This document shows positions 28,875 to 29,905 of a stretch of DNA of 41,448 nucleotides, in pieces. The DNA is taken from UHGV virus genome UHGV-0135480, one strand, 5' to 3'. The translations under genes and the position numbers were made by a program. This DNA comes from a virus. A model generated the notes under the pieces. It was given only the letters and a program-made list of their open reading frames with translations, had not been told where the DNA came from and did no database searches. How positions within the stretch are numbered: the first letter of the stretch is position 1; every line of letters begins with the position of its first letter.

Positions 28875-29315
28875 TTAGAAAGGTTTTCTGCGTTGCTTGT
28901 TAATGTTAGCTTTCATAGCAGCTAAGTGGTTTTGCTGTTCAATTAGTCGTGAACGTTCTTGGTGGCTAAGTGCCATAGTGTTCACATTCTCAATTGCTTG
29001 AGTAGCTTGCTTTAAAGCACGACCAATTTTACCAGACATTTTACGTTTTGCAATAGTTGCTTGATGCTTAGGTTCAACCACACGATAACCAACACCCATT
29101 GAAGCAACCAGATAAATCTTCTCTTCTTTAAGAAGCTTCTCAATAAACTTCTCAAGTCGGTTTAGACGTGTAAGCGCATAAGCCTTCATTTCATCTTCGT
29201 ACTTAACAATGTCACCTTGATAAGTTGGCTTCACAATACCTAAGAAGGTGTCCATCTCAGAGTGTGATACAGTGTCACCGTAACTAAACTTTGCTGCTAA
29301 TGCTTTTGTATTCAT
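28875..29315 (-). CDS. hypothetical protein (146 aa), cassette gene 2
   Basis: ATG at 29315, stop at 28875 followed by the hairpin/U-tract; basic helical C-terminus. No motif recognised. Confidence 0.5.
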   Translation of the reverse strand: MNTKALAAKFSYGDTVSHSEMDTFLGIVKPTYQGDIVKYEDEMKAYALTRLNRLEKFIEKLLKEEKIYLVASMGVGYRVVEPKHQATIAKRKMSGKIGRALKQATQAIENVNTMALSHQERSRLIEQQNHLAAMKANINKQRRKPF

Positions 29316-29317
29316 AA

Positions 29318-29905
29318 TTAAACGCTACCTTCTGAAATAACTTCTACAGAAAAACGACCAAAGCGTGGACGCCAATCACCTACACCGCAAAGGTTACCAG
29401 CATTTTCCAGAACCATCAAGAGTTCCTCTTTGGTGATTTGCTCTTCATCGAACATCAAACCAAACTCTACAGACCAATCACGGAAGATTGGACGGTAGCT
29501 CATAACTCGTGCTGTACCAATCTTAACAGATTTAGCATAGATAAAATCTGGATTCTTAGCAAGTTCTTGTGGGTTTGCTGGACAGTTCTTGATAGTCATT
29601 GGGAAGACTACATCTGTCAGCATAATGGCTCGGTCAATTACCTTACCAAGTTTGTTGAGCTTTGCACCAGACTTGATACAAGCCTCAATCATCTCACCGT
29701 TCATAACAAAACCAAGTTGCTCATCGTAGTAACAAGAAGTTACCAGTTGACTTTCTGCTAAGAGCGCATAGTCTTCGTCAGTCTTTTTACGTTTACTGGA
29801 CAGAGACTTGTGATATTTTGTCAGAGGGTTTAATGGGTCTGACAGCGTATCGTTATGGCTCAGGAAAGGACGAGTACCAGTGATTTTGATATTTAACAGT
29901 TTCAT
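29318..29905 (-). CDS. hypothetical protein (about 195 aa), cassette gene 1
   Basis: ORF-track start 29920 is GTG; ATG at 29905 has GGAG 9 nt upstream. Two-nt gap to the downstream gene implies co-transcription. No motif. Confidence 0.5.

Follow-up and report, generated by a model that had tools for sequence, protein, structure and literature searches.

The window analysed here, a stretch of 41,448 nucleotides of the virus genome UHGV-0135480, contains between positions 28,875 and 29,905 a cassette of two genes, which is flanked on both sides by tracts of five-nucleotide repeats. We are highly confident that the cassette and its flanks together constitute a single VIPR (Viral Interference Programmable Repeat) locus and that this locus, a member of the SUSP1 clade of type II, serves as a weapon against satellites in the conflict between mobile elements. 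All parts of the locus are on the minus strand, in the order of two vrRNA genes upstream, vipr, vap1, and two vrRNA genes downstream (Table 1). This kind of system and the SUSP1 clade itself were described in 2026 in two preprints (10.64898/2026.04.26.720920; 10.64898/2026.04.26.720927), and the locus presented here is a complete, apparently intact example of what is already known.

According to these studies, a minimal VIPR locus consists of two genes, vipr, whose product is homologous to RAMP proteins, and the accessory gene vap, with vrRNA genes on the flanks (10.64898/2026.04.26.720920). The vrRNAs are composed of 9-16 YNNGG repeats, in which the GGY is conserved and the NN hypervariable, followed by an invariant tail of about 40 nucleotides, which in the SUSP1 clade folds into a pseudoknot (10.64898/2026.04.26.720920). 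Vipr polymerises along the vrRNA with one protomer per repeat, by which the GGY is sequestered and the NN presented, and the filament binds double-stranded DNA matching the NN dinucleotides with one skipped base, forming an R-loop triplex and repressing transcription (10.64898/2026.04.26.720920; 10.64898/2026.04.26.720927). The formation of the ribonucleoprotein and the repression of GFP and of lambda are reported in the same preprints (10.64898/2026.04.26.720920; 10.64898/2026.04.26.720927). The SUSP1 vrRNAs are transcribed and were co-purified with Vipr, and protection is stronger when vap1 is co-expressed (10.64898/2026.04.26.720920). The guides of the SUSP1 clade converge on a satellite phage in Escherichia coli genomes that has tape-measure and baseplate genes in common with the phage, and some satellites carry vrRNAs themselves (10.64898/2026.04.26.720920). 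A structure of Vipr bound to repeat RNA and DNA has also been determined (10.64898/2026.04.26.720927; PDB 36pp).

The vipr and vap1 genes

The 195-residue protein alone matches the PDB entry 36pp with an E-value of 2.6e-127, and a profile built from 36 homologues identified this single entry, annotated as 'SUSP1 Vipr protein', with an E-value of 2e-81. In a direct comparison with the genome of phiSUSP1, 191 of the 195 residues (98%) are identical, and the protein thus lies above the 90% identity to SUSP1 Vipr by which the clade is delimited. The residues contacting RNA or DNA in the published structure are all kept at the same positions (H17, K33, R39, E71, M72, K82, G87, and K88), as are the further published contact residues R138, C173, D177, W178, and R179. 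The structural model of the protein has the fold of the CRISPR RAMP proteins Cmr4 and Csm3. In addition, the adjoining accessory gene vap1, a defining feature of type II VIPR, is present.

The preliminary description, which had been made from the sequence alone, reported the two genes as a tight operon encoding 195 and 146 residues without any recognisable motif. Both observations hold. The open reading frames (ORFs) are located exactly there, on the minus strand, with two nucleotides between the vipr stop codon and the vap1 ATG, and neither protein has a significant match in Pfam, NCBIfam, or PADLOC. The PHROGs families of the two proteins, 4652 and 5926, are both of 'unknown function'. Clear homology to a housekeeping function of phages, named there as the refuting outcome, was not found. 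For vipr, the ORF list offers the ATG at 29905, resulting in 195 residues, and an upstream GTG, resulting in 200 residues. The ATG is favoured because the PDB sequence of the SUSP1 orthologue begins at the same MKLLNIK. In phage wV8, the counterparts of vipr and vap1 are genes 95 and 94.

More than 500 Vipr homologues were found at 37-50% identity, in phage-like contigs as well as in records attributed to bacteria, ranging from Proteobacteria to Actinobacteria, and none of these contains a Pfam domain. Concerning Vap1, a word-index homology search returned near-identical copies only, while an exhaustive HMMER search identified 234 remote relatives of 145-200 residues. In two unrelated phage contigs a protein of 166-182 residues is encoded directly 3' of a vipr homologue; one of these downstream partners can be aligned to Vap1 over the full length (24% identity), and the other shows local similarity only (17% identity). 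The pairing of vipr and vap is thus also seen in unrelated phage contigs, and the pair is therefore a conserved module. The AlphaFold2 model of Vap1 (pLDDT 95) shows a small N-terminal helical domain, a β-hairpin wing and then two long helices, with the conserved G-x-G-Y motif placed in the wing. Fold comparisons gave weak matches to winged-helix proteins only. Judged by the model, Vap1 probably combines a winged-helix-like DNA-binding part with a helical hairpin.

The vrRNA genes and the proposed mechanism

Four GGY-NN pentamer tracts are present in the window, all on the strand of the genes, and such tracts did not appear in any of 50 shuffled sequences. The closest relative, Escherichia virus TH10, has no further tracts of this type outside the locus in its genome of 89 kb. 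Each tract continues into a tail of 34 nucleotides. The tails occur in three main variants, and nine variants can be aligned without gaps. The alignment supports an H-type pseudoknot with stem 1 formed by columns 3-6 and 17-20, and stem 2 by columns 9-15 and 28-34. In this arrangement 96% of the cells are paired and both sides have changed in 9 of the 11 pairs, while none of 500 shuffles scored as high, and pairing falls to 28-37% of the cells when the partner columns are slid against each other. The covariation is of the RNA type and includes G-U pairs. Rfam 15 does not contain a family for the vrRNAs.

A leader of 38 nucleotides (...AAAAGGTCTTTAAGAGGGTCTTTTAAYRA) precedes every tract, in a variant form in the case of vrRNA-A. 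The leader contains two GGTCTTT half-sites 12 nucleotides apart and the palindrome ACCTTTTTAAAAGGT ahead of them; the vrRNA-A variant has neither the palindrome nor exact half-sites. The leader before the first vrRNA is the same in TH10, KhF3, SUSP1, DaR-2019b, and ASO1B. Apart from its five copies at the locus the motif was not found in the window, and the satellite DNA (157 kb) is practically free of it. The ideas of a general phage promoter and of a motif enriched in satellites were dropped because the leader is confined to this locus. It could be a promoter, an operator for Vap1, or a processing signal.

The preliminary description had noted hairpins and periodic tracts on both sides of the operon, and proposed that these insulate two genes, possibly for host takeover or anti-defence. 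The tracts are real. However, the majority of what had been taken for 'terminator-like hairpins' turned out to be pseudoknot tails, and the repeats are not insulators but four vrRNA genes on the same strand and functional partners of the two proteins. If the proteins were takeover or anti-defence factors acting on host proteins, with the repeats as transcriptional insulators, the position among early genes would fit, and the two PHROGs families of unknown function would leave room for it. The early-gene context was recognised correctly: by synteny with the annotated phages wV8 and Felix O1, the neighbouring genes encode thymidylate synthase, dihydrofolate reductase, DNA ligase, and DNA polymerase. 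However, it is hardly conceivable that such factors have the RAMP fold and 98% identity to a protein solved with repeat RNA and DNA, and that mere insulators are strand-specific, keep GGY while varying NN, and end in covarying pseudoknots. In addition, neither PADLOC nor the anti-defence families gave a match for the two proteins. What can be retained of the earlier guess is an accessory cassette of the conflict type, which serves neither takeover nor the inhibition of host defence.

Public annotations of related phages point in another direction. The KhF3 record (KT184315) labels a part of the tract, at 1993-2003, as 'direct repeat sequence4 possible binding site of StbAB', and in wV8 it is called 'DR_4'. 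Both annotations predate VIPR and are misleading. According to the KhF3 label, both proteins would bind the period-5 tracts as DNA iterons of a centromere-like or replication-control element, and short periodic repeats flanking the gene of a small DNA-binding-like protein are indeed reminiscent of the ParR/parC or StbA/stbDR partition modules. Those modules include a partition NTPase, but neither a ParM/ParA-type nor a StbA/StbB-like protein was detected at the locus with Pfam and NCBIfam. Iterons would also not be expected to carry GGY on one strand only or to be capped by structured tails with RNA-type covariation including G-U pairs, and the corresponding SUSP1 tracts are transcribed and co-purify with Vipr (10.64898/2026.04.26.720920). 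The repeats thus act as RNA, and we give the iteron interpretation next to no chance. A TRAP-like RNA-binding protein had also been considered as reader of the period-5 tracts, and this idea was abandoned after the match to PDB 36pp and the VIPR papers.

The closest known system is the type II VIPR locus of SUSP1. Besides Vipr (98% identical) and Vap1 (100%), the order of vipr and vap1, the leader motifs, the three tail variants, the GGY-NN pentamers on the gene strand, and the apparent satellite family are the same, and both loci occupy the same slot between the ligase gene and the homologue of wV8 gp93. They differ in the layout, which is one upstream and three downstream vrRNAs in SUSP1 versus two and two here, and none of the four guides is in common. 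The phages themselves belong to different genera, SUSP1 to Suspvirus and the phage analysed here, whose closest relative is TH10, to Felixounavirus.

We infer the mechanism in this phage from SUSP1 because the proteins are 98-100% identical and the architecture of the RNAs is identical. Each vrRNA of about 100 nucleotides would consist of a run of GGY-NN pentamers capped at the 3' end by the pseudoknot. As a minimal RAMP protein and a relative of Cas7, Csm3, and Cmr4, Vipr would bind with one protomer per pentamer and build a helical filament, which would hide each GGY and expose the NN dinucleotides. This filament would pair with double-stranded DNA in the reading NNxNNx..., skipping one base per unit, and in coding targets the skipped base would usually be the wobble position of the codon. 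The R-loop triplex would block transcription without cutting, and the small DNA-binding-like Vap1 would boost the silencing. The likely natural targets are satellite islands of about 11 kb with a serine recombinase in E. coli chromosomes, whose tape-measure and baseplate genes are related to those of the phage and which presumably parasitise it. Because the locus is near-identical to the characterised SUSP1 system, its function is best described as RNA-guided silencing of competing mobile elements.

The locus does not belong to any of the CRISPR types, and it contains no ORFs besides vipr and vap1. The backbone proteins of Class 1 CRISPR-Cas systems (Csm3, Cmr4, Cmr6, and Csf2) show only about 10% sequence identity to Vipr, and a CRISPR array, cas1/cas2, Cas6, or a large subunit were not found in the locus based on its ORFs, repeats, and the Pfam, NCBIfam, and PADLOC searches. 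In contrast to Class 1 CRISPR, two of five RNA bases would pair here with two of three DNA bases, and the output would be repression instead of cleavage.

Presumed satellite islands and candidate guide targets

The satellites were located through the phage's own tape-measure and baseplate genes. When the structural genes of the window were compared with 5,426 complete E. coli genomes by megablast, 377 of these were found to contain chromosomal segments matching the 3' end of the tape-measure gene and a baseplate gene of the phage (window 13784-15532), with the best matches mostly 80-95% identical. One of the islands used as query matched 570 of the 5,426 genomes, and about 7-10% of the complete E. 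coli genomes carry islands, among them those of the strains A3024 and JNEC-KY173. The segments are part of islands of about 11 kb bounded by a large serine recombinase, which are found at five or more sites, including mdtG, the gene of a DUF72-domain protein between yecN and yecD, and positions beside wrbA, tonB, or dinB. Beside the tape-measure and baseplate proteins, the islands encode a DNA methyltransferase or an AP2-type regulator and small proteins, and they are highly mosaic (loci L009-L013 and L020-L027). Presumably, they represent a satellite family of Felix O1-like phages. They agree with the satellite of the VIPR paper.

The rule of one skipped nucleotide could be checked on the islands with a set of 31 unique guides taken from Felix O1 and ten further phages. 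When scored against five islands with one nucleotide skipped, 12 of the 31 guides reach at least 80% (the best with 25 of 26 coded bases), compared to one, two, and one guides at skips of 0, 2, and 3 nucleotides, respectively. No guide reaches 80% with the one-nucleotide skip in 81 kb of flanking E. coli DNA. The phage itself does not seem to be a target, as there are no self-matches of at least 80% in the window and the whole TH10 genome (the best are at most 75%).

For the four guides of the window the one-nucleotide-skip scan covered 13 islands with 157 kb. Guide C matches 21 of 24 coded bases (88%) in an intergenic region of island locus L020 (2929-2963), about 155 bp upstream of the island's methyltransferase gene. 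The 3' 12 units of guide A match 20 of 24 coded bases (83%) on the antisense strand within the tape-measure gene of the satellites (L011, 10557-10591); the match includes nine perfect units in succession, and every skipped base is a codon position 3. The guide A site is present in more than 100 genomes as determined by BLAST with the idealised target, and BLAST with the idealised targets of guides A and C did not reveal any satellite variant with a better fit. When the order of the units was shuffled and scored against the first five islands, the observed score was reached in none of 300 cases for guide A and in 4 of 300 for guide C, for which the score was then 19 of 24.

Guide B has eight perfect units in a row at a conserved intergenic island site, its total score not being above background. 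The exact 13-unit pattern of guide B has no match in viral contigs, and the exact one-nucleotide-skip patterns of guide D, including a 10-unit version, have none in the viral, genome, and metagenome collections. A single metagenome match to an 11-unit pattern of guide B (Ga0315275_10033630, 3379-3410) was discarded as probably due to chance, being located in an unrelated ORF of 610 residues with unmatched flanking units. The whole downstream vrRNA array searched by BLAST against the E. coli genomes did not give a match. One of the islands, in E. coli APEC O18 (L025), contains at 3870-3919 on the minus strand a vrRNA-like gene of 10 GGY-NN units, not accompanied by vipr. Its tail (GGGTGGATTGTCGTATCCACGTTAAAAATCGAC) has further compensatory changes in stem 2, in agreement with the published report on satellite vrRNAs.

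Several points weigh against an anti-satellite VIPR locus as described here. The best natural matches are 83-88% and none is perfect, the match of guide A is limited to its 3' two-thirds, and guides B and D have no target of at least 80% in the 13 islands (the best, 70-73%, correspond to the background level). The islands are connected to this phage as its satellites only by the common tape-measure and baseplate genes. Guide A has 18 units compared to the published 9-16, and seven of these begin with U or A. We infer the expression and the ends of the four RNAs in this phage, and the source papers for VIPR are preprints.

A precedent for the constellation as a whole might be the lytic Vibrio phage ICP1, which, as Seed and colleagues reportedly described in Nature in 2013, carries a CRISPR-Cas system directed against the chromosomal PLE satellite. 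The ICP1 system is a full CRISPR-Cas system of type I-F, which includes a nuclease and acquires spacers. In both cases the guides of an RNA-guided system encoded by a lytic phage match a satellite in the host chromosome, which parasitises the phage or, in the present case, presumably does so. Here, however, there is a single RAMP protein, no nuclease and no known acquisition machinery, and silencing would take the place of degradation.

Distribution, guide exchange, and genomic setting

The window derives from a myovirus of the Felix O1 type (Felixounavirus). TH10 shares 98% identity with the region 28500-30400, and many other phages of E. coli and Salmonella share 91-96%. The cassette was found in 118 phage records, the adjacent ligase gene in 260. 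In 108 of the 118 records the cassette is 95-99% identical, whereas the ligase gene (30354-31490) is mostly 90-95% identical, a comparison of two record sets that differ. Taken from these sequences, the higher uniformity of the cassette suggests a recent exchange or horizontal spread among the Felixounaviruses. Felix O1 (NC_005282) has lost or never had vipr and vap1. The 283 bp between its ORF87 and ligase gene contain at 3700-3810 one leader, ten degenerate pentamers (six with GGY), and a perfect D-type tail, and correspond to a junction of window positions ~28591-28640 with ~30262-30300. This contiguous arrangement is common to about 100 records. The Felix O1 site, a single orphan vrRNA-like gene, could be a deletion scar left by a recombination between the repeated leader-tract-tail modules, or equally the site at which the cassette was inserted, and it may represent a gene for a guide alone.

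This distribution would be compatible with a real VIPR locus that is decaying or idle, with relic guides and a cassette on its way to being lost as in Felix O1: less than half of the approximately 260 related records (118) kept it, about 100 have an empty site of the Felix O1 type, targets are missing for guides B and D, and seven units of guide A do not start with GG. An idle locus would, however, hardly be more uniform than the neighbouring ligase gene, nor retain all functional Vipr residues together with a Vap1 identical to the active SUSP1 protein. Units with A or U at the first position are also found in SUSP1 vrRNA genes, which were detected as transcripts (10.64898/2026.04.26.720920), and the satellite matches of two guides are statistically unusual. 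We therefore consider an idle locus improbable, and a functional anti-satellite VIPR locus remains by far the preferred interpretation.

The guides were compared by running the pentamer parser on the equivalent stretch of Felix O1 and of nine related phages. The parser recovers the published SUSP1 layout, while the other loci mostly have two vrRNAs on either side. In general, leaders and tails are nearly invariant across the relatives, and the NN bases and the number of units (7-19) vary freely. The 'GGY' triplets frequently begin with U or A, also in the guides of SUSP1. Guide A is identical in TH10 and ASO1B, guide C in TH10, KhF3, and wV8, and guide B in the window, TH10, KhF3, and DaR-2019b, although the A or D guides of these phages differ. 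PHB11 has a chimeric guide A. Compared to the window, guide D of TH10 contains a duplication of 10 nucleotides, or two units, with an extra GG-TA unit pair. Among ASO1B, PHB11, and BPS15Q2, the guides at the D position are distinguished only by their final units and by how many AA units they contain. This pattern of the guide sequences would be explained by slippage within the tracts, in steps of 5 or 10 nucleotides, combined with recombination at the constant parts.

Beyond this, a more far-reaching scenario can be drawn, to which we attach rather little weight. Elements with guides only might be functional, and guide repertoires might evolve without an acquisition enzyme. Leader and tail might serve as recombination handles by which whole or partial guides are swapped between co-infecting Felixounaviruses, while slippage by five nucleotides might change the number of units. 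The orphan vrRNAs of Felix O1 and of some satellites might then be 'free riders' using Vipr in trans, and the leader might be the operator or promoter for the enhancement by Vap1.

The coordinates of all features are given in Table 1. A direct repeat of 175 nucleotides brackets the cassette (28627-28801 versus 30038-30212, 78% identical), and a family of five 79-nucleotide repeats surrounds it. The genuine terminator-like elements are the hairpin following vap1 and the inverted repeat with T run at the end of the locus. Another hairpin with an 8-bp stem (GGTGAGTA...TACTCACC) and a 23-nucleotide loop is located at 30293-30331 on the minus strand, just 3' of the stop codon of the ligase gene. 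This hairpin, which is kept in Felix O1, overlaps with the -10 element of the predicted promoter before vrRNA-A and could be a terminator of the ligase gene or a regulatory structure.

Table 1. Features of the VIPR locus, in window coordinates and in the direction of the genes.
Feature	Position	Strand	Description
Predicted sigma-70-like promoter	30320..30347	-	TTGACA-16-TATACT, 11/12 consensus matches; upstream of vrRNA-A
Leader of vrRNA-A	30253..30290	-	variant of the conserved motif (...CTTAAGAGTCTTCTAAGAGGGTTTTTAAGTAA)
vrRNA-A	30129..30252	-	18 units (30252-30163; 11 GGU, 5 UGU, 2 AGU), 34-nt pseudoknot tail (30162-30129); NN = GA TT TT GT CA AA GA CT TT GC GA GC CC AA CC GC AA GC
Leader of vrRNA-B	30091..30128	-	TACCTTTTTAAAAGGTCTTTAAGAGGGTCTTTTAATAA; exact 23-nt motif at 30094-30116
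vrRNA-B	29982..30090	-	15 units (30090-30016), 34-nt pseudoknot tail (30015-29982); NN = AG AA AA TT CT TT AA GC CT TT AA AA TC AT AT
Fifth leader-like copy, degenerate	29921..29981	-	AAAGAGTCTTCTGTTGAGGGTTCTTTACAA, copy at 29953-29981; precedes vipr; region also holds the vipr ribosome-binding site and a weak promoter-like site (TTTACA-18-TAAAGT, 9/12)
vipr	29318..29905	-	195-aa RAMP-fold protein, predicted to polymerise on vrRNA
vap1	28875..29315	-	146-aa accessory protein, 146/146 identical to the SUSP1 orthologue
Intrinsic-terminator-like hairpin	28848..28863	-	AGCCTCTTCGGAGGCT followed by a T run; 3' of vap1
Leader of vrRNA-C	28812..28847	-	exact motif at 28815-28837
vrRNA-C	28718..28811	-	12 units (28811-28752), 34-nt pseudoknot tail (28751-28718); NN = AG AC AT GG AG GA CT TT AA AG CT AT
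Leader of vrRNA-D	28680..28717	-	exact motif at 28683-28705
vrRNA-D	28591..28679	-	11 units (28679-28625), 34-nt pseudoknot tail (28624-28591); NN = TA TA CT GT AG TA GG TA TT AT TT
Inverted repeat with T run	28544..28590	-	19-bp inverted repeat at the locus end; includes the TTGACA of the promoter-like site of the next gene

The published picture of VIPR is not changed by this locus. As a new class of DNA recognition guided by RNA, VIPR relies on a RAMP protein of about 20 kDa with a discontinuous pentamer code, and a role as an ancestor of the backbone of the CRISPR effectors has been proposed for it. The present case demonstrates that such a locus can be picked out by reading the raw sequence alone. 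Within the family, it identifies an accessory cassette in roughly half of the Felix O1-like phages, which are used for Salmonella typing and for the biocontrol of E. coli and Salmonella. To the natural history of VIPR it adds that guides are shuffled between phages, and that the apparent target islands constitute a family of the E. coli chromosome at the frequency given above. When strains are chosen for phage therapy or biocontrol, the presence of vipr and the set of guides may thus affect the performance on island-bearing hosts.

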